Source: an uncultured Nitrospiraceae bacterium
GTDB lineage: Bacteria; Nitrospirota; Thermodesulfovibrionia; Thermodesulfovibrionales; Dissulfurispiraceae
Reading direction: 5' to 3'
Length of the DNA: 64,000 bases
Assembly: GCA_963736105.1 (NCBI GenBank)
Contig: CAVTNL010000001.1
Coordinates: 862,688-926,687 of the forward strand
The position numbers and the translations under genes are program-made. The notes below the pieces were generated by a model that was given only the letters and a program-made list of their open reading frames with translations, did not search any database and was not told the origin of the DNA. Positions within the stretch are counted from its first letter, which is position 1. Each line of letters begins with the position of its first letter. This document shows positions 1 to 40,061 of the stretch, one piece after another.

Positions 1-1336
1 AAAAGCTCAAGACCTCGTCCGCATGGCGGTAGCTAAGGCCGTCCTGCTTGAGCCTTTGAGTCAAACCGTGCTCGGAAACACCAAACGGGCTCTGGTGGTA
101 GGCGGAGGCGTTGCCGGCATGAACGCCGCCAAGGAGCTGGCGAGACAGGGTTATGAAACCGAGCTTGTAGAGCGATCAGAGCGTCTTGGCGGGCACGCCT
201 TACAGTTGTACAAGACGACCAGGGGAGAGGAGGTGGCGCCTTACGTCGATGAACTTGCAAAGAGCGTATCCTCTGACTCGCGCATCAATGTGCATCTGGG
301 CTCCGTAATATCAAAGGTCGACGGATTTGTCGGCAATTTCAAGACTACATTGAGCAAAGCCGGAAACGGCGAACAATCGGTTGTAGTCGAGCACGGGGTT
401 GCAATTATTGCAACCGGTGCTTCGGAGCTCAAACCTTCCGAATACCTTTATGGGCAGAATCCTAAAGTGATGACTCAGACGGAGTTCGATAGGCTGTTTA
501 AAGATAATTCCAAGGCATTCAAAGATATGAAAAAGGTTGTATTCATCCAGTGCGTAGGGTCCAGGGATAAGGACAGGCCCTATTGCAGCAAGGTCTGCTG
601 CGCACACTCTGTGCAAAGCGCAATCGAGATCAAGAAAAGAAACCCCGCGGCCGGCGTCTGCATCCTGAACAGGGACATCAGGACCTATGGCGAGCTCGAA
701 GACCTTTACCAGGAAGCAAGGGATGTGGGTGTGTTCTTTGCCAAATATGATGAAAACAGGAAACCTCGGGTCGAGGACAACGGCAGCACGATCGGCGTCA
801 CCTTCACTGATCACATACTGCAAAGGGACATCAAGGTTAATGCTGATTATCTGGTCCTGGCATCAGCGATAGTTTCCAACCGTGAAGAGGAACTTGCACA
901 ACAGTTCAAGGTACCGATGGATGCCGATGGCTGGTTCGTGGAAGCACACCAGAAGTTGAGGCCCGTAGACTTTGCAACTGACGGTGTCTTCTTGTGCGGG
1001 CTGGCCCACTATCCAAAGGCTATGGATGAGGCCGTTGCTCAGGCCCAGGCGGCTGTAGCTAGGGCTGTTACAGTTCTTTCGATGGACAGCATCGTGGTCG
1101 GAGGGAGCACCTCTAATATAGAAAAGAGGCGTTGCGCAGGTTGCGGCGTATGCATTAACCTCTGCCCGTTCCAGGCGATAAAATTCGATGATAAAGGGAA
1201 GGCTGAGGTAAATGTCGCGCTGTGCAAGGGATGCGGAGTTTGTGTCACCTCATGCAGGTCGGGAGCCCCTGATCTGAAAGGATTTACAACTGTAGGTGTC
1301 ATAGCTCAGCTCGACGCTCTGGAAGGAGTGGTGTAA
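1..1336 (+). CDS. hdrA: Heterodisulfide reductase subunit A-like flavoprotein (FAD/NAD-binding, two C-terminal 4Fe-4S ferredoxin motifs). 5' partial: the ORF runs off the window start.
   Basis: GGGVAGMNAA dinucleotide-binding motif. C-terminal CAGCGVCINLCP and CKGCGVCVTSC ferredoxin motifs. No stop in frame upstream of 23 back to position 2. Followed by mvhD. Confidence 0.7.
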   Translation, partial: KAQDLVRMAVAKAVLLEPLSQTVLGNTKRALVVGGGVAGMNAAKELARQGYETELVERSERLGGHALQLYKTTRGEEVAPYVDELAKSVSSDSRINVHLGSVISKVDGFVGNFKTTLSKAGNGEQSVVVEHGVAIIATGASELKPSEYLYGQNPKVMTQTEFDRLFKDNSKAFKDMKKVVFIQCVGSRDKDRPYCSKVCCAHSVQSAIEIKKRNPAAGVCILNRDIRTYGELEDLYQEARDVGVFFAKYDENRKPRVEDNGSTIGVTFTDHILQRDIKVNADYLVLASAIVSNREEELAQQFKVPMDADGWFVEAHQKLRPVDFATDGVFLCGLAHYPKAMDEAVAQAQAAVARAVTVLSMDSIVVGGSTSNIEKRRCAGCGVCINLCPFQAIKFDDKGKAEVNVALCKGCGVCVTSCRSGAPDLKGFTTVGVIAQLDALEGVV

Positions 1337-1398
1337 CAACCGTAACACAACAGGGCCCTTATGATGCCCGTTGCATTAACTAAATGGAAGGGTATTTC

Positions 1399-1848
1399 AT
1401 GTCAAAGTTCGAACCAACTATCGTGGCTTTTCTGTGCAATTGGTGCAGTTACGGAGCGGCTGACTTAGCAGGGGTAAGCAGGATGAAATATCCTGTAAAC
1501 ATAAGGGTCGTAAGAATTCCCTGCACAGGACGTATGAGCCTTGAATTTATCATGGACGCATTCCGCAGAGGAGTTGACGGCGTCTGGGTATCTGGCTGAC
1601 ATCCGGGCGACTGCCACTATATCAGTGGCAACCTGATCGCCCGTCGCAAGTTTGCGATTATGAAGAACCTTCTTGAATATGTTGGTCTGGAGCCAGGCAG
1701 GCTTCATTTCTCCTGGATTTCCTCCGCTGAAGGCGAGAAATTCGCTAATTTTGCAACATCGGTCGTAGAGAGTGTAACTGCATTAGGGCCGATAAAAAGG
1801 TTTGTAAAAGATACAGTTGAGGTCGGCGGCAGAGGTGCAGAATTATGA
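1399..1848 (+). CDS. mvhD: MvhD/FlxD-family protein (methyl-viologen-reducing hydrogenase delta subunit-like). Predicted selenoprotein: the in-frame TGA at 1597-1599 is read as Sec.
   Basis: ORFs 1384..1599 and 1660..1848 share a frame. Read-through gives ...GVDGVWVSG-U-HPGDCHYISGN..., matching the conserved GCHPGDCHY motif of MvhD with the TGA at the Cys position. A hairpin lies directly downstream. RBS GGAAGGG precedes the ATG at 1399. Confidence 0.75.
1604..1643 (+). promoter_or_regulatory. Bacterial-type SECIS-like stem-loop immediately 3' of the UGA in mvhD
   Basis: CGGGCGA(1604-1610) pairs with UCGCCCG(1637-1643). Inner stem GCCACU/AGUGGC with AUAUC loop (1613-1629). Begins 5 nt after the UGA. 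Confidence 0.5.
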
Positions 1849-2801
1849 ATACCAGAACAAATAAGATCAGGGAAATAGCCAAGAAGCTTCTGGACAAGAA
1901 CAAAGTCGATGTTGTGATAGGCTTCAAAAAGGGGACTATTCCGCTGCGAAACATTCCATATTTTGCGACCAATTCGAAAGAGGCAGACCAGCTTGTTTGG
2001 GATGGCAATTGCGTTGGCAACCTGGCGATCTATCTGCCCAGAACGGCAGCTAAACGCACTGCCATCATTGCACAAGGATGTGTAAGCAGAAACGTAGTAG
2101 GCCTAATTCAAGAGAAACAGGTAAACGGCGAAAATATTTATATCATCGGGATGCCATGCTCAGGGATGCTTGACGCTCGAAAGATCATGGCAGCCGTCCC
2201 CGGAGAGATTACAGAAGCGATAGAAGATGACTTGTATGTTACTGCTAGAGGAAAGGGATTCGAGCTTACAATGAATCGCAGTGACGTGCTGAACCGGAAT
2301 TGCGACCGATGCAGTGTCAGAAACCCGGTGCTTTTTGATGAACTCGCCGTAGAAAAGGTTAACGAACTAAAAGATCCTGTTCGATATGAGAAAATAAGGG
2401 CGGTAGAGGCGATGTCAACTGAAGAAAGGGCGAAGTTTATTGATGAACTCCTAAGCCCGTGCATACGCTGTTACGCCTGTCGCGATGCCTGTCCGTTGTG
2501 CTACTGTCCGGAGTGTTTTGTTGACAAGGCGAACCCCCAGTGGTGCGGAAAATCTCAAGACAGCATGGACGTTTTGTCATATCACCTGATCAGGGCGTTT
2601 CATACTGCGGGGCGATGCACTGAATGCGGGGCATGCGAGGAAGTTTGCCCCATGGGTATTAAGGTTAGGCTGATCTCAGGCAAGGTGGAAAAAGATGTCA
2701 GGGAAACCTTTGACGATTATGCGGCATGGAAGGATCTGAAAGCTCTGCCGCCGCTGACAGTCTTTCAGCGCGACGACCCTCAACCGTTCGTGAAGGAGTA
2801 G
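1845..2801 (+). CDS. Fe-S cluster protein with CxxCxxCxxxCP motifs (FlxC/FrhB-like electron-transfer subunit)
   Basis: CIRCYACRDACPLCYCPEC and CTECGACEEVCPMG motifs. ATGA overlap with the mvhD stop suggests translational coupling. Confidence 0.5.
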   Translation: MNTRTNKIREIAKKLLDKNKVDVVIGFKKGTIPLRNIPYFATNSKEADQLVWDGNCVGNLAIYLPRTAAKRTAIIAQGCVSRNVVGLIQEKQVNGENIYIIGMPCSGMLDARKIMAAVPGEITEAIEDDLYVTARGKGFELTMNRSDVLNRNCDRCSVRNPVLFDELAVEKVNELKDPVRYEKIRAVEAMSTEERAKFIDELLSPCIRCYACRDACPLCYCPECFVDKANPQWCGKSQDSMDVLSYHLIRAFHTAGRCTECGACEEVCPMGIKVRLISGKVEKDVRETFDDYAAWKDLKALPPLTVFQRDDPQPFVKE

Positions 2802-2811
2802 GTGACTGACC

Positions 2812-3843
2812 ATGGAATACATGAGACTGAATAAGAATAGAATGGCACTTTTTATTGAGGAGTTAAAAAAGAAATGCGAGGTCTGGGCGCCAGTTAAAGC
2901 GGGCGAGCAGGTAAAGTTCGCGCCTATTTCGAATGCATCGGATATAAACCTGGAAGGTTTTAGGAACACGACCATGTCGCCAAAGGATATCTTCTTTCCG
3001 CAATCGGAGATAATGCTTTCATTTAAGCGGGAGGGAGAGGAGGCAAATATTTACAGGGACGAACAATCCGTTCCCTCAAAGAAGGTCATATTCGGCATAA
3101 GGCCCTGTGATGCAAGAGCTTTCAGCCTCCTGGATATGATATTCAAGAACGATCAGTTTACCGACAACTACTGGTCGTCAAAGAGGGATGCGGCTACTAT
3201 CGTAGGGCTTGGCTGCAAAGAACCGTGCAGCACCTGTTTTTGCACATCGGTCAATTCGCATCCATTTGACGAGACTGGGCTGGACGTCATGGTTTCCGAT
3301 CTCGGCGAACACTACCTCTTTAAGTCCCTGACCAAGAAAGGCAGGGAACTGCTTGCAGGCAGCCATGCCTTGAGAGAACCCAGTGAAGCCAACATGGAGG
3401 CCTATAACACCATCAGAAAGAATGCTGAAAACGCCATGACTGTACAGTTCGGCACTGATAAGGTGAATGGCAAGACCGTGCTTGCACTCTTTAATGAAGA
3501 GTACTGGCAAAAAATATCCGAACCTTGCCTTAACTGCTCAACCTGTTCCTATGTCTGTCCAACCTGCCATTGTTTCGATATACAGGACGAGGTGTTCAGG
3601 GGAGGAGGGCAGAGGATGCGCAACTGGGAGTCGTGCATGACGTGGATATTCACCGTTCATGCAACAGGGCATAATCCACGGCCGACCAAGAAGGAGCGTG
3701 TGAGACAGCGGTTTATGCACAAGTTCAAGTACATACCGATGAAGAGGAACGGGGAGATTGGATGTGTAGGTTGCGGCCGCTGTGTAACAATGTGCCCTGT
3801 GAATATAGACATACGTGAAGTAGTAAAACAGATTAATTCGTGA
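2812..3843 (+). CDS. AsrA/HydB-like 4Fe-4S dicluster protein (anaerobic sulfite reductase A / sulfhydrogenase beta-like; FlxB-like)
   Basis: CLNCSTCSYVCPTCHC and CVGCGRCVTMCP motifs, about 340 aa, immediately upstream of a PyrK/AsrB-like flavoprotein. Confidence 0.55.
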   Translation: MEYMRLNKNRMALFIEELKKKCEVWAPVKAGEQVKFAPISNASDINLEGFRNTTMSPKDIFFPQSEIMLSFKREGEEANIYRDEQSVPSKKVIFGIRPCDARAFSLLDMIFKNDQFTDNYWSSKRDAATIVGLGCKEPCSTCFCTSVNSHPFDETGLDVMVSDLGEHYLFKSLTKKGRELLAGSHALREPSEANMEAYNTIRKNAENAMTVQFGTDKVNGKTVLALFNEEYWQKISEPCLNCSTCSYVCPTCHCFDIQDEVFRGGGQRMRNWESCMTWIFTVHATGHNPRPTKKERVRQRFMHKFKYIPMKRNGEIGCVGCGRCVTMCPVNIDIREVVKQINS

Positions 3844-3871
3844 GACTAAATACGACAAGAGAGAGCGATAT

Positions 3872-4711
3872 ATGAAAAACCCATATTTGCCTTATCCGGT
3901 AAGAATAGAAAAAACGGTAATCGAAACTGAAGATAGGAATATCAAGTCGTTCAAGCTTGTATTTCTCAAAGAAGAGGACCGCAATGCTTTTGTTTATACT
4001 CCTGGCCAGTTTGCGCAGCTATCGGTTACTGGCAAGGGTGAGATCCCCATCGGGATAGCTTCGTCTCCAACCGAAGGTGACCACCTGCTTTTTACCGTAA
4101 ATAAGATGGGAGTGGTTACGACCGCCCTCCACAATCTTTCCGAAGGATCAATAATGGGTGTGAGAGGTCCGCTTGGAAACTCCTATCCTTTCGAAAAGAT
4201 GAAGGGAAAGGATGTTACCATTATAGGTGGTGGTTATGCCTTTACAACGCTACGCGCTACAATTGTGTACATGCTTGATGAGAAAAACAGAGCTGATTTC
4301 GGTAAGATCACTCTTATTTATGGGGCAAGGACACCGGGGATGTTGCTTTACAAAGACACTTTGGAGGAATGGTCCAAGCGAGACGATATAAATTATAACG
4401 TAACCGTAGACAGGGACGCGCCAGGCTGGAGCGGAAGGGTCGGCTTTGTACCTGCAGTAACCGAGCAGGTTGCACCCTCCTCAAACAATGCAATCGCTGT
4501 GATCTGCGGGCCGCCAATTATGATTAAATTTACGCTGCCTGTTATGGAAAAACTCGGCTTTACGCCGGAGCAGACTATCACCTCCCTTGAAAATAGGATG
4601 AAATGCGGCATAGGCATATGCGGCCGGTGCAACGTAGGTCCGGAGTATGTTTGCAAAGACGGCCCAGTATTCTCGATGGCCCAGTTGCGGGAGATGCCTC
4701 AAGAATACTGA
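3872..4711 (+). CDS. FAD/NAD(P)-binding oxidoreductase with C-terminal 2Fe-2S site (AsrB / HydG / PyrK family; FlxA-like)
   Basis: Ferredoxin-NADP reductase-like fold signatures (YTPGQFAQL, GGGYAF). C-terminal CGIGICGRCNV...C cluster motif typical of PyrK/AsrB. Confidence 0.65.
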   Translation: MKNPYLPYPVRIEKTVIETEDRNIKSFKLVFLKEEDRNAFVYTPGQFAQLSVTGKGEIPIGIASSPTEGDHLLFTVNKMGVVTTALHNLSEGSIMGVRGPLGNSYPFEKMKGKDVTIIGGGYAFTTLRATIVYMLDEKNRADFGKITLIYGARTPGMLLYKDTLEEWSKRDDINYNVTVDRDAPGWSGRVGFVPAVTEQVAPSSNNAIAVICGPPIMIKFTLPVMEKLGFTPEQTITSLENRMKCGIGICGRCNVGPEYVCKDGPVFSMAQLREMPQEY

Positions 4712-4872
4712 TCTGTGTAAGCAAGGCGCTCTGCAAGGATTGAATATAAATGTCCAGTATATCGATCCTGAAAAATATTTAATATGTGTAGTGTGTTGTA
4801 AGTGTGGAGCCGGAAATATGCGCAATCACAATGGATTTAGGAAACAATGGGTCAATGAATAATCATACTCTA

Positions 4873-5616
4873 TTATAATTTTGTTTTTTTTCGCAATCTG
4901 TCTGCAGGTACTGGCGCTTGCATAGGGTAAATGGGGTTAGCTAGTGTCCACCATCCAGGACGAGGTTGCCGTGCGAATTCGATACGGTAGATATATTTGA
5001 TGTTCTTGTATCCAAGACTGTAAGGCGCTATTAGACGTAGTGGCGCGCCATGATCGTGTGGAAGAGGATCGTTGCCCATCCACAAGGTCATGAGGCATTC
5101 TTTCTTCGGATCGAGTAGATCTTTAACGAGATGCGATTCCAAGTAGCAGCTCTGTCCATGAGGCTTGTCTGTTGTTTCGCCGAGAGAGTAGAACACCGCG
5201 TAATCCGCTCCAATTCTGGGTCGTGCCCTTCTTACAATCTCCTGAAAACGGAAACCACCCCAATGGTTATCAGCCACAGACCATCCTTCCACGCAATGAA
5301 AATCCGATATCTGACGTGATTTTGGAAGGGCAAGAAGGTCATCATAGGATAGCTTTAATGTCTGGTCCACCAAACCCTCAATGGAGAGGTTGTAGGGCTC
5401 ATCCTTCTTTCCCTCCCATCTCACCATGCCCGTTTTAGGATCAAAGTGGAAGGCATCCCGCTCGACCGTCCTTATGTAAAACTCCTCTACGAAAAAGGCC
5501 TTGAGGGTCGAAGGAATGCCAAGCAGAATGGTAAAGAGTCCCAATGCTTTGAGAAATAACCTTCTCCCGAAACTGCTATCTTTTCCCATGAGTGTAGTCC
5601 TTTTAATGATCCGCAA
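4873..5616 (-). CDS. Molybdopterin-dependent oxidoreductase, sulfite-oxidase fold (YuiH/MsrP-like), Tat-secreted
   Basis: N-terminal GRRLFLKALG twin-arginine motif. HCVEGWS and LAPYSLGYKNIKY motifs of the Oxidored_molyb domain. Confidence 0.7.
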   Translation of the reverse strand: MRIIKRTTLMGKDSSFGRRLFLKALGLFTILLGIPSTLKAFFVEEFYIRTVERDAFHFDPKTGMVRWEGKKDEPYNLSIEGLVDQTLKLSYDDLLALPKSRQISDFHCVEGWSVADNHWGGFRFQEIVRRARPRIGADYAVFYSLGETTDKPHGQSCYLESHLVKDLLDPKKECLMTLWMGNDPLPHDHGAPLRLIAPYSLGYKNIKYIYRIEFARQPRPGWWTLANPIYPMQAPVPADRLRKKTKL

Positions 5617-5813
5617 AAAAAGATCCGTTTCCAGTCTATGCTAATAGTATTTCTGATACTCCAACAATTATAGCAGTTTGTAGTTAGCAATTCTGAGTTG
5701 ATTTAGAAGTAATCGAAAACCTGTGCACAAACGATCCTGTCAATATTCTGCCGTGAGTGGAATATTATTTTGGAAATTATTAATTCTTGCTCAAATAGTC
5801 GAAGTTATACTGC

Positions 5814-6146
5814 TTATTTGCCCAGTCTCAAGCTGATCCGTCCAACCAATGCATCCTTCGATAAGCTACCAACTATGCGGTCCACCTCTTTGCCGTCGAC
5901 ATAAACAACAACCGTCGGTGTGCCAGTCACATTACATTGAACAGCCATAGAACTGTTTTCATCGCAGTTCAACTTCGCAAAACGCACTTTGCCGGCCATC
6001 TCCGCAGCAGCCTCTGCGTATACAGGAGTAAACATCTTGCAGTGTCCACACCAGGGGGCCCAGAAATAAATGACCATGATTCCAACAGATTGCTCTACAT
6101 TGGACATCCACGTTTCCGCCTTTAGCTCAATTACACTATAATCCAT
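5814..6146 (-). CDS. trxA: Thioredoxin
   Basis: WCGHCK active site; 110 aa. Confidence 0.85.
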   Translation of the reverse strand: MDYSVIELKAETWMSNVEQSVGIMVIYFWAPWCGHCKMFTPVYAEAAAEMAGKVRFAKLNCDENSSMAVQCNVTGTPTVVVYVDGKEVDRIVGSLSKDALVGRISLRLGK

Positions 6147-6293
6147 GGAATATATCCTCCAATATATTGCTCACAAACCTTTTTACTTCCGATTCTTTAA
6201 TTTATCTCAAGAGTCGGCTTGCTAAAAGCAAGCTTGCTATTTGAGTACCGCCATATAACTATCGTACACTTGTTTGCTACGAAGATACGAAAG

Positions 6294-6557
6294 CTAATTT
6301 ATCCTTTCACCAAGAAGCTTGCCTAATTTAGACAAGTGGTTCTTTTCTTCTTCAATAAGTATGTCGAAGACTTTTTTTGCCCTCACGTCCTCTATCTTTC
6401 TTAATATTTTGATATATAGGTCAAGAGCGTTAATTCCCAATTGCATTGAGACTTCAAGGATATCAAGCAGGGTCTTGTCCCGTCCCTGCAAGAAGCTAAC
6501 AACATCCTCAATCCTGACGCCACCCTCCATGACTCCTTTTAATGGCTCTCTATTCAA
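6294..6557 (-). CDS. Small hypothetical protein (possible ferritin-like EEEKNH motif)
   Basis: 87-aa ORF directly 3' of iscB. No confident family assignment. Confidence 0.3.
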   Translation of the reverse strand: MNREPLKGVMEGGVRIEDVVSFLQGRDKTLLDILEVSMQLGINALDLYIKILRKIEDVRAKKVFDILIEEEKNHLSKLGKLLGERIN

Positions 6558-6589
6558 AATATCGTCGTTAAGTTTTTCATGAGAACTCC

Positions 6590-7909
6590 TTAGGCGCGGA
6601 TACTCGGTAATGCATTGCCGAGAGGAGCGCCTGTCTTTGATTGATAGGAATAGCCGTCAGCCCTGTGAATCACAGAGCAGTGTTTATAGCTGATACCCTG
6701 AACAACACCAGCAGTACTCGACACATTGAAATAACCAGACGTTCTCACTGCTACCTTGCCGACATGTATGCCTGTCTTTTTGCCGGTCGGGACACTAGCC
6801 TTAACTAAATCCCCCGTTCTAAACCCCTCGACCACACGAGTCGACTTGGCTGAAGTCCGTGAGAACCCAAACTTGTCCATACGGCACATTTGCCGACAGC
6901 CATGACCACAAGCCTTCACCTGCAGCACAGCCATATTCGAATCGAGCTTTACATGCGCCCCGGACTCGCCAACGCAGGCCGCATCTATCCAGTGAGCCTT
7001 CGGATAACCCTGTTGATTACGGTTGAACTTAGTGCGCCCACCGGACCAGAATGTCACCGGCAATCCAAGAGACTTCAGAGTATTGCCAATCGCATATCGG
7101 GTAGCGTTAACCGCTGCCGCGTCTTTGAGCGGCATAAGAGCTTGTTTCTGCACCTCCGGATGCCCAAACTCCACAGCAGTAAGATTGTTCTTTCTCTGAT
7201 TGCAATCCTCACAGGACAGAGTGAGGTTTGAAACACGATCAGTACCTCCTCTGGACTTGGGAATTATGTGCTCGATTTGCAATGGAATATTGCCTGTACC
7301 GCAATACGCACACCTATGGCCCCATTTTTGGAGCAGGTACTGCTTGACCTCAAATCCAGCAAGTGTCCCCTGCTGGTATTCGACACCGGATATTTCAGGG
7401 TTGACCATCTTCTGCATATCGAACCTGACAGTCTCCACCGCAACAGACGTTAGCGGGGCAAGCCGTTGCAACCTCTGCGCCCAAGTCATCGTGTTGTAAA
7501 CGCGAGACATGAGAGAGGGCGGCAACCATCCCTCTGGCCTGGTCCGATTGTCAAAACGTGGAGCACGATATCTGGTCTTGCGGTTGCGCCTGCTTCTGCG
7601 AATAGAGCGCCTTGAATCAAGAGCTTTTTTGATAGCCTGCCCTCTGTGGTGAATCTCTGCGGCAAAGACTACCGTCTTCCCTCGCTTGGCGTACTCGGCA
7701 ATAAGTGCTACTCCGGTCAACTTGCTGCCTGGATCCGTTTTGAATTCAATCGGCTGAGTGTCTCCGTCTGCTCGATCTTTAAGAATGATCGTAAACGGAT
7801 ACCGGTTCAGCACCGCAGCTTTCTTCTCCGTTAATAACATCCTGGCCCTTGCCGGAGTGCAGGGCATGAGATGCTGTCTGGTACTGCTTACTACGAAAAC
7901 ACGTTGCAT
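6590..7909 (-). CDS. iscB: IscB (OMEGA RNA-guided nuclease; IS200/IS605-family insertion-sequence protein with split RuvC and HNH domains)
   Basis: N-terminal PLMP-like motif (HLMPCTP). Arg-rich bridge helix (RRSIRRSRRNRKTRYRAPRFDNRTRP). HNH motif (CAYCG...IEHIIPKSRGGTDRVSNLTLSCEDCNQRKNN). Zn-finger cysteines (CGHGCRQMC). About 440 aa. Confidence 0.8.
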   Translation of the reverse strand: MQRVFVVSSTRQHLMPCTPARARMLLTEKKAAVLNRYPFTIILKDRADGDTQPIEFKTDPGSKLTGVALIAEYAKRGKTVVFAAEIHHRGQAIKKALDSRRSIRRSRRNRKTRYRAPRFDNRTRPEGWLPPSLMSRVYNTMTWAQRLQRLAPLTSVAVETVRFDMQKMVNPEISGVEYQQGTLAGFEVKQYLLQKWGHRCAYCGTGNIPLQIEHIIPKSRGGTDRVSNLTLSCEDCNQRKNNLTAVEFGHPEVQKQALMPLKDAAAVNATRYAIGNTLKSLGLPVTFWSGGRTKFNRNQQGYPKAHWIDAACVGESGAHVKLDSNMAVLQVKACGHGCRQMCRMDKFGFSRTSAKSTRVVEGFRTGDLVKASVPTGKKTGIHVGKVAVRTSGYFNVSSTAGVVQGISYKHCSVIHRADGYSYQSKTGAPLGNALPSIRA

Positions 7910-8144
7910 CGAATTACTCCTTCAATCTCCACTTTCGTGGGTAATGTGTGCCTCGGCAATGTTATCCGGCGGTTTCGCTTAAAGCGCCTGCTGTTGGGTG
8001 TGCAGACAGCACTGGCTTAACCCTTACACCTGTTTAACTGTCTGCCGCAGAGCTTGGGACTGGCAAGCATCCCGAGGTGCCTATGTATTCGCCGGTAACG
8101 TAGTTAATACAACACTGAGCCTGGTCAACTAGAGCATGCTTGAA
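7910..8144 (-). ncRNA. Candidate omega-RNA region upstream of iscB
   Basis: 235-nt non-coding gap 5' of iscB with multiple stable hairpins (CAGACAG...CTGTCTG at 8003-8044; GAGCATG...CATGCTC at 8131-8156). In IscB systems the omega-RNA is encoded directly upstream of the ORF. Confidence 0.4.
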
Positions 8145-8522
8145 TTAACACATGCTCTCGGTTTTAACCCCGAGTGGTTGACTGTAGCTTCCCGTGGCTA
8201 CATGACCGTTCCATGCTGTGATGCCTCCGTCCATACTGTAAATTTTAGAGAACCCCTGAGCTAATAAGAAAGCTGCTGCAGCCCGACTCCGGTTGCCACT
8301 CCTGCAGTATGTGAGAATTGGCCTAGTACGATCTAGCTCGCCCACTTTGTTTATGAGGTCTGGTAGCGGAATAAAAACAGCTCCTGGAAGATGGCCAGAT
8401 TTATACTCTTCAGGTTGTCGAACATCGAGAATAATAAATTCTGATCCCTTGTTGCCAAGCAATTCTTTTGCCTGGTCGACGTCCAGAGTTTCAATTTTAT
8501 TGCCTGCATTTATATCTTCCAT
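8145..8522 (-). CDS. Rhodanese-domain sulfurtransferase
   Basis: Single rhodanese domain with CRSGNRS active-site loop. Confidence 0.8.
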   Translation of the reverse strand: MEDINAGNKIETLDVDQAKELLGNKGSEFIILDVRQPEEYKSGHLPGAVFIPLPDLINKVGELDRTRPILTYCRSGNRSRAAAAFLLAQGFSKIYSMDGGITAWNGHVATGSYSQPLGVKTESMC

Positions 8523-8665
8523 GATTATCCTCTTTTCTTATAGTAGCATGACTTTTGATTCAATTATAGATCATAGTACATATATGACACATAGGCATGG
8601 CCAGTTTTTTCTGAATACAATGCAATAGAGCCCAAAAAACTCTTTTGCAAATAAAGAGGTGCAGC

Positions 8666-9259
8666 ATGAACTTACTGAAGGGAACAAAGACAGCCGAAAA
8701 CGTATTAAAAGCCTTCGCAGGGGAATCCCAGGCGCGCAACCGGTACACATTTTATGCTTCTGTGGCCGACAAACAGGGATACAAGCAGATCAAGAATATC
8801 TTTCTGGAGACAGCTGATAATGAAAAGGAGCATGCAAAGAGATTTTATAAGCTTCTGCTGGAGGGTTTCAAGGACGAACTGCCGGCGATGATCGAGATCA
8901 ATGCCGCCTATCCTGTGGCACAGGGAAACACGCATGATAACCTCATGGCAGCCGCAAACGGCGAGAATGAGGAATGGCAGACGCTATACCCTTCTTTTGC
9001 CATGGTTGCCGAAGAAGAAGGATTCCACCATATTGCTATCGTATTTCGTAAAATTGCTGAAGTCGAAGCTCGTCACGAGGCACGTTACCGTAAGCTCGCA
9101 GCCAACATAGAAACTGACCGTGTCTTCACAAGAGATTCTAAGAGTTCATGGAAGTGTGCCAACTGCGGGTATGTTCATGAAGGAGCCAGCGCACCTGAGA
9201 AATGCCCTGCATGCGATCATCCGCAGGCATATTTTGAATTGTTCGCCGAGGCATACTGA
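8666..9259 (+). CDS. rbr: Rubrerythrin (ferritin-like diiron domain plus C-terminal rubredoxin-like CxxC...CxxC)
   Basis: ExxH diiron motifs. C-terminal CANCG...CPACD. AGAGGT RBS 6 nt before the ATG at 8666. Confidence 0.85.
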   Translation: MNLLKGTKTAENVLKAFAGESQARNRYTFYASVADKQGYKQIKNIFLETADNEKEHAKRFYKLLLEGFKDELPAMIEINAAYPVAQGNTHDNLMAAANGENEEWQTLYPSFAMVAEEEGFHHIAIVFRKIAEVEARHEARYRKLAANIETDRVFTRDSKSSWKCANCGYVHEGASAPEKCPACDHPQAYFELFAEAY

Positions 9260-9387
9260 AAGCGGACGTTAGTTCGAGAACAAGGCAGGGACACTACTAT
9301 GGAGTTCAAGCTGCTAAGAATCCGACATGATCAAGGTCGGACCGGAGTTACTTAGTCGATCATGGATTCAGATAGGGAGGAGCAGAT

Positions 9388-9807
9388 ATGACAAGCAATG
9401 TCGGATCCATTAAGCAAACCTCGCAAAGTTATGGCTCCTTCCGTCAATTGTTATTCTTGATCTTTATCTGTGTGATTGCCGACATGTGGGGCTGTTCTGT
9501 TGCACCATCTGAAAGCACAGTGGCGAAAACGATCACTGATTATTTTGAAAGTGGACAATATAAAGTTGTCGATCTCAAGATTGGAAAGATACAGGGTATG
9601 CCTTTGTCTGAAAAGACATATATGGGGACTCCGGGTTATGTCGTTGATATTGTTTCCATTACCCTTGAACCAAACGTGGATAAAGGCATTGATATCAAGA
9701 AGGGCAAGCAAATTACTTTTTCAAATGCAAGGGTCAGGGTAAGGCAGGATACGGGAGATAAGAATGTGTGGCGTGTTTCCATTATTTCTGGAATCACTGT
9801 GCCATAA
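9388..9807 (+). CDS. Hypothetical exported or membrane-anchored protein
   Basis: N-terminal hydrophobic segment; no family recognised. Confidence 0.3.
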   Translation: MTSNVGSIKQTSQSYGSFRQLLFLIFICVIADMWGCSVAPSESTVAKTITDYFESGQYKVVDLKIGKIQGMPLSEKTYMGTPGYVVDIVSITLEPNVDKGIDIKKGKQITFSNARVRVRQDTGDKNVWRVSIISGITVP

Positions 9808-9962
9808 TCAGCAGAATGATAACCTTCTGGAACAGCTGAAAGAGAAAAACCATAAAAAAATGCTGATGTTGTTTCTATGGTATTGCAGAGTATTCATCAA
9901 TGAAGTTAGTTATTCGGTGGTTTCTGAAATCAAAACCAGGAGGATCACTGATTTATGGACAA

Positions 9963-10112
9963 ATGGGATGCACTATCTGTGGATATATCTACGACCATGA
10001 AATGGGCGATCCAGATGGAGGTATCGCTCCCGGTACCCCTTTTGATCAAATTCCGGAAGGTTGGGTATGCCCTGTCTGCGGTGCTGCCAAAGATTTGTTT
10101 GAGAAAGTATAG
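9963..10112 (+). CDS. rub: Rubredoxin
   Basis: [11 protein letters not shown]...[16 protein letters not shown]; classic CxxC(G)...CPxCG. Confidence 0.8.
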
Positions 10113-10596
10113 TCTATAACTGACAGGAGTGCATCCTCGCTAATTGCTTTGTGCGGTTATCTCCATCCAGCCAGAATGTAAACGTGGGCTGCGACATAAA
10201 GAAGCTTGCACCTCATCTGGAATCTAAATTGCAATAATTCCTCGACGCGCACGATACAGTCAGGATAGAGAATTTGAAAGTCTTGGCCAAAGTCTCGTGT
10301 CTTCTATTAGACAATGACTATTGGCAGCAGACCGTAATCGAATGGTTTGCGCCGGTTGGAAAGGATGCACTATATAAATGACACTCAGCATGCGAAGCTT
10401 CTTGTACTAATGATGGGTCCCGATAAACTTTGCTGTGATTTTTACTGAAATTCCTGAGCAGTACTTTATTAGTATACTAGAATTGACTCGATTAAAGGCT
10501 TTAAGAGGAGTGGTACTTTCTTTATCAAAACAGTGCATGACTAACAGCTATTTCATCTGCTAATGTATGTTATCTATCTGAAACATATTTCTATTT

Positions 10597-12201
10597 ATGA
10601 TGAGAAAACTTACCATAAGCGCAGTCCTCGTCATTTTTCTCTTTAATAATATTGTCCTTGCCTCTGATTTTAGGTTCTCGCCGCATCCCAACACGGCTAA
10701 TCTCATAAAATGGAGGCACTGGGAGAAGCCGACCTTTGACGAAGCGGAGAAAGAAGGTAAACCCATACTGCTCTCCATAAGTGCAGTATGGTGTTACTGG
10801 TGCCACGTAATGGATGAAACAACTTATTCTGCTATTGATGTAATCGATTACATTAATAGTAATTTTATTCCGGTTAGGGTGGATGCAAACATGAGACCCG
10901 ATATAGACAATCTGTACAACCAGGGAGGCTGGCCCAGCACAGTTGTCCTTACGCCTAAGGGAGAAATAGTGCAGGGAGGAAACTACATTTCACAGGAGTC
11001 TATGATTGTTTGGCTTTCAGATGCACTAGAGATGCTCAAGGATGATAAAAATGGATTCAAAGAAAGAAGCAAAACAATAAATAAGAAGAGAAAAGAGACG
11101 GTTCGACAACAGGAAGGCACTACTCCAGATGTTTTTCAGATTACCAAGATAACCAATTTGCTTGAATCATCATACGACAAGAGGTATGGTGGCTTCGGGT
11201 TCTCGCAAAAGTTTCCTAATCCAGACGCAATAGATTTTCTACTCTCAGGGTATCTGAAAACAAGAACTTCCGAGCTGGCTACAATGATTTCCACGACTCT
11301 TGAGAAAATGTCTAGGGGGGAAATTTATGACCGTGTCGAAGGAGGCTTCTTCAGATATTCCACCGGGCGTGACTGGTCGGCCCCGCATTATGAGAAAATG
11401 CTGGATTTGAATGCGGCTCTCATCGGGAGTTATGCATCCGCCTATATGGTATATGCTAAGAGTGACGATAAGAAGGTCTTGAATAAAACGATCGCTTATA
11501 TAGAGAAGTATCTCTATGACAAAAGAACTGGAGCTTTTTACGGCAGTCAGGATGCTGAGGAGAAGTACTACGGGACAACTGAGAGATCCGGGCTTAAGCC
11601 ACCACACGTTGATAGCACTATTTACGCTGACTCAAATGCCCAGATGATAACGGGCCTTATTGACGCGTATGGAGCAACCGGTGAGAAAAGGTTTCTTAGA
11701 ATGGCGAAGCGGGCTGCTGAATTTATCATTATACATCTCTATACAGATAATGACGGTACGTATCATTATTACTCTGGGCAGAAGCATGTGAGTGGTCTGC
11801 TCTCAGATAACGTGCTCTTTGGGTTGGCACTTATTGATTTATACAATTCGACAGGTGAAAAAAGATACATAAGCATAGCTGAAGATATTTCTCGCCTTAT
11901 CATAGATAAATTTTATGATAAGACAAACGGCCATTTCATTCCGTTTCTTGAAACGACCATAGTCAACCCTGAGAAAGCAAGTGCGCTTGCAGACTACAAC
12001 ACCTACCTGGCAAATTACAGGGCAGTAATATTATTAAACAGACTTTATTATTTTAATGGGAAGGAAGGACTGAAAAACATCATTGAGAGTGCAATTGCCA
12101 AGCTGAGCACTGGCTATGTGTGGGCGGCGGGGAAAAAAAACCGATTCCGGTGGAACCGAAAGCGTCGCCTTGGGAGCCGGTCTTTAGCTGTTAGCTTGTA
12201 A
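10597..12201 (+). pseudogene. DUF255/YyaL-family thioredoxin-domain protein (thioredoxin-like N-term with CYWC plus six-hairpin glycosidase-like domain), N-terminal portion. The gene is interrupted by an IS21-family insertion.
   Basis: Signal peptide; SAVWCYWCH motif; COG1331-like body. The C-terminal remainder of the same family resumes at about 14950-15285, downstream of istAB. Confidence 0.65.
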
Positions 12202-12283
12202 GTGCTGCAACAAAGATAAGACCTACCTTTTTATTCCTTCCTAATGCAATGATTACCTCTGACGTAAGAGCGGAGGTGGGTCA

Positions 12284-12649
12284 TTGGCGAAGCGATGTAT
12301 CTATTGCGGGCGACATTTTACTCCTGATCGACGGCTGGGCGATCGGCAAAAAGCATGTAGCCGGGATCAGTGCAAGAAGAAACGCAAGCAAAGTGCCCAG
12401 CAGGCTTGGAACGTAAAGAATCCTGGATATTATAAAGGCCGCTACTGGTATGTGAAGGAATGGCGACAGCAGAAGCGCCAACAGAGTGCTGCCCTCCGGT
12501 CTCAGTCCATGATACAAGACGCGATACCCCCTTCAAAGTCATACCAGCAACTGGTTCTGCTGATACCGGACACGATAACAGGTGTGATACAAGACGAGAT
12601 ACGGCTGCGAAGGGTTGATAGTACTACGTTTACCGCCTATGGACCGTGA
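12284..12649 (+). CDS. Small basic Zn-ribbon protein (CxxC...CxxxxC), possible IS passenger or regulator
   Basis: 121-aa ORF inside the inserted element, upstream of istA. Lys/Arg/Gln-rich. The IstA-binding-like repeats lie in its 3' half. Confidence 0.3.
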   Translation: MAKRCIYCGRHFTPDRRLGDRQKACSRDQCKKKRKQSAQQAWNVKNPGYYKGRYWYVKEWRQQKRQQSAALRSQSMIQDAIPPSKSYQQLVLLIPDTITGVIQDEIRLRRVDSTTFTAYGP

Positions 12650-12725
12650 TACAAGACACGATGGACTACGGCAAAGTGCCGATGTAAACTTGGGAATCAC
12701 GACAAGCAAGGAGACAGCGGCCGAA

Positions 12726-14138
12726 ATGGAAGAATCACTTCAGAGCCGGGTACGGCATCTCTACCAAATTGAAGGATTGAGTCTGACCCAGGTAGGCAGG
12801 CAACTTGGCATATCCAGGAAGAAGGTTACCCGTCTCGTCCGACAGGATGATCTGCAAAGAAAGTCTTCAGAGACCGTAACTACTCCTTATGAACGACTGA
12901 TAGAGCAGTGGTACAAGGAATATCCGCTCCTCAAAGCCGTTCAGGTATTGGAACGACTGAAGAGCTATGGCTATGAGGGAGGGTATACAGCGGTAAAGGA
13001 ATGTACTCTTCAGTTCAGGAATAAGCGAAAGAACACCTCCTATCATGCTCTGGAGTTCCTTCCTGGAGAAGAAGCTCAGGTTGATTGGATGCAGCGGACC
13101 ATGCCTTTCGGCGTTGTTTACGGGTTTGTCTATATCCTGTCCTATTCGCGGTACCTCTACGCCCACTTCTATCTGAGGAGTTCCATGGAGTTCTTTCTGG
13201 ACGGCCACATAGAGGCTCTAAAGGAGATCGGAGGAATCGTCAGCAGACACACTTACGACAATCTCAAATCCGTAGTCATAAATAGAAAGCCCGTGATCAC
13301 ATACAATGCAAGGTTTGTGGACTTCGCCAGACATTATGGCTTTTCGATTCGTGCCTGCAATCCCGGCAAGCCCAATGAAAAAGGCAGAGTTGAGAGGGTT
13401 ATCAGGGACATCGAAAGCTTCCTCGTTGCCAACACCTTCAGTGATATCGGCGACCTCAACAGAAGACTCGGGCAGTGGCGGATACAGAGAAACAACAAGA
13501 TTCACCGGTCCCTGGGGATAACGCCCGCGGAGGCATTGAAACAGGAACGTCTCAGGAATCTTCCTCAGATCCATTACCTACCTTACCGGCAAGAGCCGGC
13601 GGCTATCAATAAGACATGCTTTGTGGAGTTCGACACCAACCGCTACTCGGTGCCGTCGCAGTACAGCAACAGGCCCTGTGACATCTTTGCTTATCCTCAT
13701 CAGATAGAAATCCTGGTTCAGGGCAAAAAGATAGCGACACACAACAGAGTATTCGACAGGAAACAAAAGATAGAACATCCTTCTCACCGCGAAAGGCTTC
13801 TCAATATCACTCCCCACTTCAAATACCAAAGGATGTACCAGCTCCTGAAGTCCATGGACAAAAACATCGAACACTTCCTCAGGCGGGCCGAACAGGAAGG
13901 ACAGGATCCTCTTGAGATCTCTTACGACCTGTTCAAACTGCTCAAAGGCATAGCCAGAGAGACGCTTATATCGGCGGTAAAGACCGCGATCAGCATCGAT
14001 ACATACAGAGTGACATATATCCAGGGGCTTCTAGGGCCTGCCGGTAATCATGACAATCCCGTGCATCCTCAGAACCATGGGCTGTTACACATCTCATATG
14101 AAGGGAGGCAGCTGAGCGACTATGATGAACTTATCTGA
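12726..14138 (+). CDS. istA: IS21-family transposase IstA (HTH plus DDE integrase core)
   Basis: N-terminal HTH (LSLTQVGRQLGISRKKVTRL). rve-like integrase core. Likely start at MEES (12726), not the upstream ATG at 12615. Confidence 0.85.
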   Translation: MEESLQSRVRHLYQIEGLSLTQVGRQLGISRKKVTRLVRQDDLQRKSSETVTTPYERLIEQWYKEYPLLKAVQVLERLKSYGYEGGYTAVKECTLQFRNKRKNTSYHALEFLPGEEAQVDWMQRTMPFGVVYGFVYILSYSRYLYAHFYLRSSMEFFLDGHIEALKEIGGIVSRHTYDNLKSVVINRKPVITYNARFVDFARHYGFSIRACNPGKPNEKGRVERVIRDIESFLVANTFSDIGDLNRRLGQWRIQRNNKIHRSLGITPAEALKQERLRNLPQIHYLPYRQEPAAINKTCFVEFDTNRYSVPSQYSNRPCDIFAYPHQIEILVQGKKIATHNRVFDRKQKIEHPSHRERLLNITPHFKYQRMYQLLKSMDKNIEHFLRRAEQEGQDPLEISYDLFKLLKGIARETLISAVKTAISIDTYRVTYIQGLLGPAGNHDNPVHPQNHGLLHISYEGRQLSDYDELI

Positions 14139-14799
14139 ACTGTGGAGACACTTCAGACTCCTTGCGGACCAGGAATCTCTGTCAAAAGAACAAAAGGAGT
14201 TCATGCTGAAGTTCCTCACCGAGGAGTATCAGCGCAAGGAACAAAAAAGAATCCAATATCTCATGAACATGTCCGGTATAAAAAGGACAAAGGTCCTCGA
14301 TGACTTCGACTGGAAATATAATCCTAAGATACCGAGGGACAAGATCCTGGAATACATGAACACGCAGTGGCTTAAGAAACCAAGCAACCTCATTCTCATA
14401 GGTCCTGCCGGCGTCGGCAAAACCCATGTTGCGACAGCACTATGTCACGATGCCCTGAGCAAAGGCCAGCAGACGGTCTTCCTGACACTCTTCGATCTCA
14501 CCGCCAAAATGGCGAAAGCCAAGAGCATATACAGCTTCATCGAATACCATTCAAGGGCAGCCGTTTGGTGTCTGGATGAGATTGGCTATGTGATCCCGAG
14601 CAAAGAACAGGCGGACTGCATCTTCCAGATAATCTCGAAAAGGGCAGAAGTGGGGACGACCATCGTCACCACTAATCTTGTGCCATCAAACTGGGGTAAG
14701 GTGTTCGACACCGTGACTGCGTCGGCGATTCTGGATCGGCTCAGCATGAGCGGAAGGTTCATCACCTTCGAAGGGAGGTCTTATAGGAGTAGACAATAG
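14122..14799 (+). CDS. istB: IS21-family helper ATPase IstB (AAA+, DnaC-like)
   Basis: Walker A GPAGVGKTH; overlaps the istA 3' end. Confidence 0.85.
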   Translation: MMNLSELWRHFRLLADQESLSKEQKEFMLKFLTEEYQRKEQKRIQYLMNMSGIKRTKVLDDFDWKYNPKIPRDKILEYMNTQWLKKPSNLILIGPAGVGKTHVATALCHDALSKGQQTVFLTLFDLTAKMAKAKSIYSFIEYHSRAAVWCLDEIGYVIPSKEQADCIFQIISKRAEVGTTIVTTNLVPSNWGKVFDTVTASAILDRLSMSGRFITFEGRSYRSRQ

Positions 14800-14950
14800 G
14801 CAGTCCTAACTGATGAGACACGGCCTCGCGATAATCTTCATCCTATTGGGACAACTCGCCCCGGCGCCAGGTGTTCGACGGGGTCTTGCGTCTTCATCAA
14901 CTCCAAAAAAGAACCGGCGCCGCCGGAATCGGTTCCTTTCGAGCGCCGCC

Positions 14951-15285
14951 CACACTATGAAGATTACGGACCTTCTGCGGCCCTCTATGGAACGGCATTG
15001 CGATGGAGCGTGGAAGCACCTATTGTCATCACGATAGTTGCGCGTGAGAAGAACGTAGTCAGGTTTCTAATGCCAATCAATAGGAATTACATTCCTCAAA
15101 AGGCAGTTAAAATTTTATCTTTAAAACTTGAAAAAGACCGAATCAGGTCACTCGGCTATCCAAAGGGGGAAGCTGCTTACATTTGTTCGGGAAAGTTATG
15201 CTCACCAGCTCTTACTGAGCCAGATAGGCTGACTGCAGAAATAAAGAGGTTTATGGAAGGTCTTCATGGAAAAGATATGTATTGA
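14951..15285 (+). pseudogene. C-terminal fragment of the IS-disrupted DUF255/YyaL-family gene
   Basis: Frame continues ...YEDYGPSAALYGTALRWSVEAPIVITIV...GEAAYICSGKLCSPALTEPDRL, with the C-terminal CxxxxC of COG1331 proteins. No ATG start; begins at the IS junction. Confidence 0.5.
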
Positions 15286-15793
15286 GAACACTTCTCCAGA
15301 TTTCATCTTCCGTCTTGTTAAGTTCATACAATTCAATTCTTATAGTTGCTTCAGACCCACTGTTCTTTCGTATCCACGCCCCTTTCTGAATTAACTTGTT
15401 TGGCACATGACCTGACATTTTCATTGTCTTAATAATACCGTCAACGCCATTTTCACAGCAGGGATCAAATCTTATCTTTCTGGCAAAAATTATTCGCCCA
15501 TGTATGCACATATGTGGCTTGATAATCTCAACAGCATCGGGGAACTGTTTCTTTGCGTACGCCATCAACTTGTCTGCCTCACCGTTATCCTTGACGAGAT
15601 CGTTATAATCAATTATCAGCCCAAAGCTTTGAGATGGTAAAATGTATCTCTCGATGATTCTAAGAGCAACTGACATTCTATTCCGTGAAAAGGGATCGCT
15701 GTTTTCAGGGTAAAACCTGCCGGGCGCAAGACCATCTGACAGACATCTGCCAATATATAGCACAAGTTCGCAATAGCTTCTCATAAGTGGCAC
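15251..15793 (-). CDS. Hypothetical protein
   Basis: 180-aa ORF; no confident family. Confidence 0.3.
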   Translation of the reverse strand: MPLMRSYCELVLYIGRCLSDGLAPGRFYPENSDPFSRNRMSVALRIIERYILPSQSFGLIIDYNDLVKDNGEADKLMAYAKKQFPDAVEIIKPHMCIHGRIIFARKIRFDPCCENGVDGIIKTMKMSGHVPNKLIQKGAWIRKNSGSEATIRIELYELNKTEDEIWRSVLNTYLFHEDLP

Positions 15794-15856
15794 CGAAACT
15801 AAAGTCCACGCAGTTAAGGCTTTGGCAATACGCTATGCAAAAAAGCGCTAAGCCCC

Positions 15857-16213
15857 TTATCCACGCGCTTTATGTGCATTATCCACCTGGAAAAGTCTGC
15901 CATAAACCGCTGGGTTCCCCGCCTCAAGATCTACCCTGAACTCGGGAAAATAGCGCACAAAGGCCTTATGTTCTGACTTGTGGTGTTCTGCGTCAGCATA
16001 GCCAAGATTTGAATATTCACCCATATATCGTTGCTCAAGTCCAAAGTGATTGTTGATGTATGAATCAAGAAAGGTGGATAGCTTACTTAGCTCTTCCTTA
16101 GCCATTTTGTCATCAAGTGCGTTCAGGAGAGTATTGATGTGAGCGAACAGTTCGCGATGCTGACTGTCTATTATCTCAACACCAACAGTAAGGTCTTGCG
16201 TCCATTCAATCAT
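15857..16213 (-). CDS. Hemerythrin-like (bacteriohemerythrin) protein
   Basis: MIEWTQDLTVGVEIIDSQHRELF...HFGLEQ...HHKSEH His/Glu ligand pattern. The upstream 46-codon extension of the ORF track is unlikely. Confidence 0.7.
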   Translation of the reverse strand: MIEWTQDLTVGVEIIDSQHRELFAHINTLLNALDDKMAKEELSKLSTFLDSYINNHFGLEQRYMGEYSNLGYADAEHHKSEHKAFVRYFPEFRVDLEAGNPAVYGRLFQVDNAHKARG

Positions 16214-16496
16214 AGTACTATTGTATATCCCGCTTTTTGTTTTTGCAAAATAGCCAGATCGACAACGACATGAATGTTCCTTCCGGAAATTATCGCATCC
16301 GTGCAGGTAAAATCGATGACTTTCAGATAGCAGCAAGATTATTTGCGACAAACGCTGGTATTGACTCCCGGTAGAAAGCTCGCATAATTAACCCTATCGC
16401 TAGGGCGATGAGTATAACTAGAAACTGTGCTGGAGCATAGTCTTATGGAACCTTGTTTAACGGTGAAGGTCAGTAGCGTCCATTTTAAATGCGTTG

Positions 16497-16946
<450 letters not shown>

Positions 16947-17628
16947 TTACACTATTTTGAACATTTTGAAAAGTGCTAAGTTCAGGTGTACAACGTAGAA
17001 GGCTAGCATCTTGATTTCGGAAAGAAAGCATGTGCAAAGAATTGCATTCCCTAAATGGAGTAGAACACGATAAAAGCATTTCTACTATTTCGATCTCATA
17101 TTTACTGCAAGAGAGAGAACACTCGCTCTTCAACTCCAGGGTAGGTACTCTCTCCTTCCGTTATTGCTAGAAATTAAAGCCAACCCCCACTCTGATACTG
17201 TATATAGCATCTCCAGTCCTGTTGGTCAAAATTGAGATAATAAGTAGTTACATTGAGTTGTCGGTTCCAACAGCACCAAGAAGTTGATAGCGCGAACGAA
17301 TCTCTTCGGTTGTTTAATACCGATAACAATTACCACAATATTTTGGCATCTAACTCCCAAAGGCAAATTCGCCTTATGCTTCCTTGACAGACAGCAAGGT
17401 TCATTAGGAAATGATCCTGCACATATATATACTGTAGCAATAAAATAATATTCCAGATAAGGACAAATCTTTCGTGAAGATGGGGCGGAAAGCGACTGGT
17501 AGCGGAATCAAGACGGCGGAACTGCTGGATAGTTCAACTTCAGCTGATCCTGCTTTTTATATTTGATAACATGGGTCAAGTATTAATTATGTGCTGCTGA
17601 TTTTCATTCTGCAGGAAGGGGTGATCAA

Positions 17629-21853: not shown

Positions 21854-21976
21854 AGCATAGGCTTTAAGACATAAAGCGGGAATTCCCGGTAATTGATTGC
21901 CGGGAAGAAAGCGCCGCTGTTGGTTATTACAGTTCTTATTCTTGACAAACGTCCAGAATTGCTTTTAGATAGGAAG

Positions 21977-39886: not shown

Positions 39887-40061
39887 CAAGCCGGTAGCTT
39901 AGGGTGTTGATAGATTGCTGCAACTCATTGTTAAATTGCGACAATGAAGGCATAATCAATCAGGATAAATCTTATGCAGATACCATAGCCCCAAAGCTTT
40001 GATATTGTAGCGTTAAAGGCATAGAAGGATAATTTTATCAACACCCTAAGCTACCGGCTTG
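39887..40061. mobile_element. MITE-like 175-bp element with 26-bp perfect TIRs and a 9-bp target-site duplication
   Basis: TIR CAAGCCGGTAGCTTAGGGTGTTGATA (39887-39912) against its reverse complement TATCAACACCCTAAGCTACCGGCTTG (40036-40061). Flanked by direct repeats TATTCCGTT (39878-39886 and 40062-40070). No ORF inside. Confidence 0.6.

Follow-up and report, generated by a model that had tools for sequence, protein, structure and literature searches.

The window analysed here is a stretch of 64,000 nucleotides of an uncultured Nitrospiraceae bacterium (contig CAVTNL010000001.1, positions 862,688 to 926,687), and the subject of this study is a locus on its minus strand that encodes the RNA-guided nuclease IscB. 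Read 5′ to 3′ on that strand, the locus consists of an open reading frame (ORF) with a rhodanese domain (8145..8522; 125 amino acids as read), a structured RNA region, the iscB gene itself (6590..7909; 439 amino acids) and a short ORF with half of a rubrerythrin/ferritin-like domain (6294..6578), referred to below as the 87-aa ORF. An original prediction, made from the letters of the window alone, had described a standalone IscB that may have been domesticated, preceded by its likely omega-RNA.

The IscB protein and its omega-RNA

The product of the ORF at 6590..7909 matched the NCBIfam profile guided_IscB (NF040563) with 439.4 bits against a cut-off of 175, residues 4-314 covering the full profile (1-314). 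Pfam matches were obtained to RRXRR (PF14239, 2.2e-71) and to HNH (2.5e-12, residues 200-242), and a sequence search against the solved IscBs returned TbaIscB (9k30, 1e-43) and OgeuIscB (7xht, 4e-31). The AlphaFold model of the protein, with 48 homologues in the alignment and a mean pLDDT of 77, had IscB-omegaRNA-DNA complexes as its top PDB matches in Foldseek (8csz, 7.8e-23; also 9k30 and 7xht). The domain set, the profile score and the fold matches thus identify the ORF as IscB.

The catalytic residues were examined in the 48-sequence alignment. The RuvC set, D59 (in DPGS), E159 (in VETVRF) and H306/D309 (in HWIDAA), is invariant, and these motifs align with the same motifs of the solved IscBs in the sequence search. 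The HNH domain sits between RuvC-II and RuvC-III; its residues H214, N228 and N237 and its cysteines C200, C203, C233 and C236 are likewise invariant. The N-terminal motif reads HLMP at residues 13-16, the family consensus being PLMP, and an Arg-rich bridge helix extends over residues ~99-125, with SRRSIRRSRRNRKTRYRAPRF at ~99-119 and a helix modelled at 90-109. The order of PLMP, RuvC-I, bridge helix, RuvC-II, HNH, RuvC-III and C-terminal beta domain is that of OgeuIscB (7xht/8csz) and TbaIscB (9k30), although the window protein is only ~17-21% identical to the solved IscBs (Foldseek) and has 439 amino acids against their ~496. By its sequence, the ORF is a bona fide IscB with all catalytic residues present and none of them mutated, and the PLMP-type N-terminus, the Arg-rich helix and the HNH domain within the RuvC fold are as originally described. 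The ratio of nonsynonymous to synonymous substitution rates (dN/dS) of the window iscB against four other copies is 0.06-0.12, which indicates that the gene is under purifying selection. A Shine-Dalgarno (SD) sequence, GAAGGAG (7917..7923, minus strand), ends 7 nt before the ATG at 7909 and is kept in the other copies.

Two close paralogues from related genomes (P0122 and P0123, 96% identical) carry D59Y, a substitution of the catalytic aspartate of RuvC-I. Both are full length, and by this substitution some copies of the family are losing RuvC activity.

Zn ribbons have been reported in the C-terminal domain of some IscB members, the domain that interacts with the target-adjacent motif (TAM). 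The zinc-binding C-terminus that had been proposed for the window protein is not supported by the alignment. C342 is invariant and C411 almost so, C334 and C338 differ even between the closest copies, and the conserved zinc-type cysteines (C200, C203, C233 and C236) all belong to the HNH domain. The C-terminal region is modelled as a confident all-beta domain at 360-426, residues 337-356 being of low confidence, and the Foldseek matches that span the full length of the model are IscB complexes.

Upstream of iscB and on the same strand, a covariance-model search gave a match to Rfam HEARO (RF02033) at 7941..8182, an RNA later shown to be the omega-RNA of IscB (see Meers et al., bioRxiv 10.1101/2023.03.14.532601). 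The match is far above chance (128.4 bits against a gathering score of 83; E 1.4e-27) and is not truncated (model positions 1-211). It stops 31 nt before the iscB ATG, and HEARO was found directly upstream of iscB in 17/17 relatives tested. The proposal that the 235-nt gap at 7910-8144 encodes the omega-RNA is borne out in kind and in strand, but not in extent: the RNA exceeds the gap and starts at 8182, 38 nt within the annotated rhodanese ORF. A further hairpin, CCAC-GAAA-GTGG (7929..7940, minus strand), lies 3′ of the Rfam model and shows compensatory variants among the copies (CCCA/TGGG, CCGC/GCGG and CGC/GCG), the loop being GNRA-like in each. Meers et al. have likewise remarked that RF02033 misses downstream omega-RNA elements. 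The window RNA also differs from the Rfam model by a 23-nt insertion. The thermodynamic fold of the region is not significantly better than that of shuffled sequences (z = -1.7), and hence the evidence for the omega-RNA is the covariance-model match.

Immediately 5′ of HEARO model position 1 lies the predicted guide, GCCACGGGAAGCTACA (8183..8198, minus strand), its length of 16 nt being adopted from related systems. Similarity among the copies begins only at GTCAAC, so that the guide is flank-derived, as in the system of Meers et al. (2023), where the guide lies outside the insertion sequence (IS). It had been expected to derive from DNA next to the rhodanese gene; it lies inside the coding sequence of that gene. 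No second match to the guide was found within the 64-kb window.

Boundaries of the element and the interrupted gene

The extent of the element was fixed by comparison with two contigs that carry the empty site, L053 (Dissulfurispiraceae) and L054. L053 is colinear with window positions 1-19363 at 99.85-99.9% identity except for two insertions present only in the window, the 1602-bp IscB segment and an IS21 element. Both empty alleles read ...GCTACAGTGAAAAAC..., with exactly the 1602-bp segment absent, and the junction region of their DNA is GTAGCCACGGGAAGCTACAGTGAAAAACTTAACG. The window junctions are ...GCTACAG[T]CAACCACTCGG... on the left and ...GGAGTTCTCA[T]GAAAAACTT on the right. One T is ambiguous, and the element (6579..8181, minus strand) can be read as 8181->6580 or, by the GT|GA convention with termini 5′-CA...AT-3′, as 8180->6579. 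A related copy, L057, aligns over element positions 1-1602 and its similarity ends at both element ends; among the copies in general, similarity sets in exactly at GTCAAC and stops at ...TCTCA|T. The comparison of the locus with relatives that had been recommended thus yielded both the ends of the element and its presence/absence polymorphism.

Comparison of the occupied and empty alleles places the insertion into GT|GA without target duplication. With G8182 included, the pre-insertion site is GT|GAAA, and the flank (T)GAAA (6575..6579, minus strand) is the right half of the split target/TAM. The left flanks of related copies end in G in 10/10 cases and their distinct right flanks begin with TGAA or TGAG in 11/11; from these flanks, the pre-insertion site is G-T-G-A-R (G|TGAR). 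It would fit the NTGA TAM reported for IsrB and the published NWRRNA TAM of OgeuIscB, as does the flank GTGAAA of the window element, and its opposite strand, YTCA, comes near the TTCAT of GstIscB (Meers et al., bioRxiv 10.1101/2023.03.14.532601). The first base of the HEARO match, G8182, lies directly at the boundary that the empty site defines. In the first base pair of the outer omega-RNA stem (GUCAAC/GUUGAC) this G is flank-derived, and the same position is G in every copy examined (HEARO matches L001-L042). Being flank-derived yet constant, G8182 belongs to the target motif GT|GA rather than to the mobile DNA.

Subterminal hairpins are present at both ends. At the left end, an inverted-repeat search found a 20-nt palindrome, CTCGGTAATGCATTGCCGAG (6603..6622, plus strand), within the 3′ end of iscB; it is kept in L001, L027 and L004. 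The right-end hairpin, CTCGG-N8-CCGAG (8157..8174, plus strand), is at the same time the first internal hairpin of the omega-RNA. Terminal inverted repeats are lacking, and the two ends share a CTCGG/CCGAG stem on the plus strand, as would be expected for substrates of a Y1 transposase.

The insertion has split a host gene. Only residues 1-113 of the 125-aa rhodanese ORF are of host origin; codon 114 now encodes Gln in place of Glu, and omega-RNA scaffold supplies the final 12 codons with the stop (tail QPLGVKTESMC). When the element is removed in silico, the rhodanese frame joins that of the 87-aa ORF to give a 208-aa protein, and two proteins from Dissulfurispiraceae metagenome-assembled genomes (MAGs), P0001 and P0002, each of 208 amino acids, are 99% identical to it over 100% of its length. 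The empty alleles and the joined frame make the two ORFs halves of one gene. On this comparison, the 87-aa ORF, which had been suspected of belonging to the element, is the C-terminal half that the insertion cut off from the host gene and not element cargo. The element is co-oriented with the gene that it interrupts, which is the usual arrangement.

Orthologues of the host gene mostly have 278 amino acids, the 208-aa form lacking 210 bp by an in-frame deletion. The junction of this deletion, which has GAA microhomology, is 0-3 nt away from where the element inserted (L055:3340-3560 vs L053:8330-8350). Aberrant boundary choice by TnpA, which has been seen experimentally (Meers et al.), is a possible cause, and chance is the other. 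No link between deletion and insertion is claimed, because the gene has only 3 GTGAR sites and the chance of such a coincidence is ~1 in 3.

These results make it very probable that the segment is an intact 1602-bp non-autonomous ISC transposon of the IS200/IS605 superfamily, which carries only iscB and its omega-RNA and lies within a gene for a 208-aa rhodanese/half-rubrerythrin-like protein. It resembles the ISC transposons of Kapitonov, Makarova and Koonin (2016, J Bacteriol 198:797; PMC4810608), whose ISC2-type members use a GT|GA target, in encoding IscB only, in its size class (~1.3-1.7 kb), in its 5′-CA...AT-3′ termini, in insertion in the middle of GT|GA without target duplication, in having subterminal hairpins instead of inverted repeats, and in being non-autonomous and multi-copy. 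Unlike them, it is a new sequence family from Dissulfurispiraceae (Nitrospirota), the copy lies within coding sequence, and the window yielded neither a TnpA partner nor an IS605B element with the same ends.

Several further copies exist. The 90% protein cluster of the window IscB has 28 members, with several per MAG, several on the same large contigs and many cut at contig ends. The window protein is identical to P0121, encoded on a 1.93-Mb contig together with a paralogue at 21 differences, and the MAG with an empty site (GCA_052148585.1) carries another copy elsewhere (L138). In a genome-contig scan made without the window's own genome, the best match was 74% identical.

Mobility of the element and competing explanations

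The identity of protein and RNA, the exact boundaries, the empty allele, the flank motif, the multi-copy status and the purifying selection come from the comparisons above; transcription, guide length, cleavage, TAM use and homing are drawn from published work on relatives and suggest the following scheme. Since the guide lies outside the element, transcription would have to start in the host gene, probably at its promoter, and would run through the rhodanese codons into the element. The transcript would give an omega-RNA composed of a host-derived 5′ guide of ~16 nt and the HEARO scaffold, which overlaps the right end of the transposon, and IscB would bind this RNA with its RuvC and HNH domains in place. 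A Y1 TnpA acting in trans could excise the element, and the flanks would rejoin seamlessly as GCCACGGGAAGCTACA-GTGAAA. The rejoined site would combine a guide match with an NTGA-type TAM; IscB would be expected to cut this joint, and recombination with a sister copy could then restore the element. At the occupied site the guide match is followed by GTCAAC in place of GTGAAA, and because no TAM is present there the occupied site should be spared.

The arrangement of an omega-RNA directly upstream of the gene with a 5′ guide is that of OMEGA IscB systems. The likeness to the system of Meers et al. (2023; bioRxiv 10.1101/2023.03.14.532601) goes further: its orientation follows that of the upstream host gene, the TnpA target doubles as the TAM (TTCAT in their system; predicted to be YTCA, on the same strand, in the window element), and natural occupied and empty alleles occur in related strains. 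Homing and excision were shown experimentally in that system, whereas for the window element they are deduced. IscB with its omega-RNA is standard knowledge of OMEGA systems, and public databases already contain the identical protein, so that the finding as such adds little. The value of the locus is that of a clean natural example. From its occupied and empty alleles, which are 99.9% identical, the boundaries follow to the base, as do the guide and the TAM with which the nuclease would attack its own empty site. The alleles also show an apparently fresh insertion that breaks a gene, in a Nitrospirota lineage that is uncultured and sulfur-cycling.

A number of observations weigh against an intact and mobile transposon. 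The search for a source copy found none whose IscB is identical; the closest paralogue protein differs at 9 residues. The polymorphism could have arisen in either direction, by new insertion in the window lineage or by excision in L053/L054. At 8155-8160 the window reads CCGAGAG where the clade consensus is CCCCGAG, and these two substitutions cut the stem of the hairpin at the right end and in the omega-RNA from 7 to 5 bp. The HEARO score of 128 bits is lower than that of the closest scored relative, L001 (150 bits). Ribosomes on the rhodanese ORF would cross the guide and 38 nt of scaffold, and formation of the omega-RNA could thereby be disturbed. A promoter scan found promoter-like sites no more numerous than in shuffled sequence. 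Finally, a scan of the 64-kb window that covered some two dozen ORFs, small or unassigned and 90 amino acids or longer, gave no match to Y1 TnpA (PF01797); the neighbours within ~8 kb carry unrelated Pfam annotations. In this respect the original statement that no TnpA lies nearby stands.

Some of these observations would also be accounted for if the copy were an inert relic, recently stranded and unable to move or home, which persists only as a gene-disrupting insertion because its hairpin is weakened, because a compatible TnpA is lacking, or because its omega-RNA is buried in a translated ORF. The two hairpin substitutions, the HEARO score below that of L001 and the missing TnpA among the candidate ORFs scanned speak for such a relic, as do the location inside a gene, unlike that of the sister copies, and the D59Y paralogues as a sign of decay in the family. 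Against it, the ORF is complete with all catalytic residues, the omega-RNA is full length and scores well above the gathering threshold, and the polymorphism implies that a transposase has acted, which argues for recent TnpA activity in the population. A relic is therefore considered improbable.

The idea that the host has retained IscB as a domesticated RNA-guided nuclease, no longer mobile and serving the neighbouring redox or stress genes, fares much worse. It draws on the absence of TnpA from the ORFs scanned in the window, on an intact protein under purifying selection, and on a neighbourhood of rubrerythrin, rubredoxin, thioredoxin and rhodanese genes. However, only ~1.5% of iscB genes adjoin tnpA (Meers et al., bioRxiv 10.1101/2023.03.14.532601), so that iscB normally stands without tnpA beside it, and the lack of one is no sign of domestication. 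The locus is polymorphic, with seamless boundaries: a genome of 99.9% flank identity lacks exactly the 1602 bp. Diverged copies occupy unrelated loci within the same genomes, both transposon ends and their hairpins are intact, the insertion breaks a host gene, and the guide matches its own empty site and has no further match in the window. Domestication, which the original prediction had suggested, is rejected on account of the polymorphism, the multi-copy status, the intact ends and the disruption of the host gene, and we regard it as very unlikely.

A type II CRISPR-Cas9 system, or a domesticated derivative of one, was also tried as an explanation and rejected: no CRISPR repeat array is present in the window, the neighbours are redox genes and the locus is polymorphic.

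That the protein might be a stand-alone HNH/McrA-like restriction endonuclease, with upstream hairpins that are only the terminator or 3′ untranslated region of the rhodanese gene, can practically be dismissed: JGI does name many homologues '5-methylcytosine-specific restriction endonuclease McrA', HNH Pfam matches exist and the rhodanese stop codon falls within the structured region, yet a complete RuvC fold with RRXRR and bridge helix surrounds the HNH domain, the upstream RNA is a full-length HEARO kept with iscB in every relative tested, the rhodanese stop codon is itself element-encoded, and no terminator-like site occurs on the minus strand in 7910-8182 (the terminator scan as a whole gave no excess over shuffles).

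Start codons at the junctions of sister copies, and other elements in the window

In the sister copies, the downstream host gene starts exactly at the element junction. With ...TAAGGAGTTCTCA at the end of the element and TGAAx at the start of the flank, the junction forms an ATG, 9 nt after the iscB stop and behind an element-borne SD (AAGGAG). In the clade, 9 of 10 independent copies lie between the G and the TG of the GTG start of a co-oriented host gene. The genes at these junctions encode TauE in L136 (3′ junction at L136:4330), a sulfatase in both L137 (L137:4330) and L138 (L138:4330), LolA in L139 (L139:4330), a NifS-like N-terminus in L057 (L057:2217) and a signal-peptide protein in L001 (L001:4346). 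The reconstructed empty sites have the form SD-spacer-GTG-AAx, mostly with an in-frame stop upstream. At least 60 codons are open from the junction ATG in 9/10 independent right flanks, compared with 27% of random GTGAR sites (binomial p ~6e-5).

A wider test covered 86 dereplicated IscB loci at 43-96% identity, in which ATGA was sought within -12..+70 nt of the iscB stop. At least 100 codons were open in 49% of these loci against 6.8% of random windows from the same loci (p 3e-26), a result that fits embedding in start codons and a simple preference for short co-oriented intergenic spacers alike. The window copy is an exception. Its GTGAA is gene-internal and out of frame, and the junction ATG opens only 8 codons (MKNLTTIF*), the TGA of this junction ORF overlapping a TTG at 6557 (window 6554-6580).

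The association with start codons is absent from Kapitonov 2016, Meers 2023, Goltsman 2022 and the results of keyword searches, a scope that excludes Weinberg 2009 (PMC4140389) and Altae-Tran 2021. That IscB/ISC elements are specialised to start codons, as a pattern both real and not yet described, is put forward tentatively, and we lean somewhat against it. If it were true, the host promoter would make the guide and the omega-RNA, and the host gene would stay translated as the last cistron. The NTGA target/TAM would then be a start-codon motif, and the window copy would show this motif struck inside a gene. Such a rule could be tested at scale and would explain both the use of the NTGA motif and the co-orientation with host genes.

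Among the sister copies, L137 and L138 hold nearly the same element (~90% identical to the window copy) in front of the same sulfatase gene. On the upstream side, their flanks are unrelated, with OprB in one and rubrerythrin in the other, and both have SD-like motifs. This suggests that recombination between element copies has swapped the 5′ regions.

A second OMEGA-type element is present in the window. The ORF at 21893-23533 (plus strand) encodes a TnpB-family protein of 546 amino acids (NF040570, 124 bits; OrfB_IS605 and Cas12f1-like TNB domains). It was considered as an IS605B partner of the IscB element and rejected, as the ends are not shared. TnpB genes also adjoin the IscB copies in L136 and L137.

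The other window-only insertion relative to L053 is an IS21-family element of 2836 bp (12119-14954), with IstA at 12615-14138, IstB at 14122-14799 and a 5-bp duplication. It splits a Thioredox_DsbH-type gene, whose product has 615 amino acids in L053 and reads 534 amino acids in the window. Two nearly identical IS1380-family DDE transposase genes are found at 34807-36138 and 60049-61380, both on the minus strand (NF033539, 242 bits for the first); judged by their likeness, the pair is a repeated IS. Group II intron RNA domains (Rfam D1-D4 and domain V/VI matches) occur at 49499-53191 (plus strand) and at 40057-40184. The region contains two sets of reverse-transcriptase/maturase ORFs, the first of which appears to be interrupted by a second intron in a nested arrangement.

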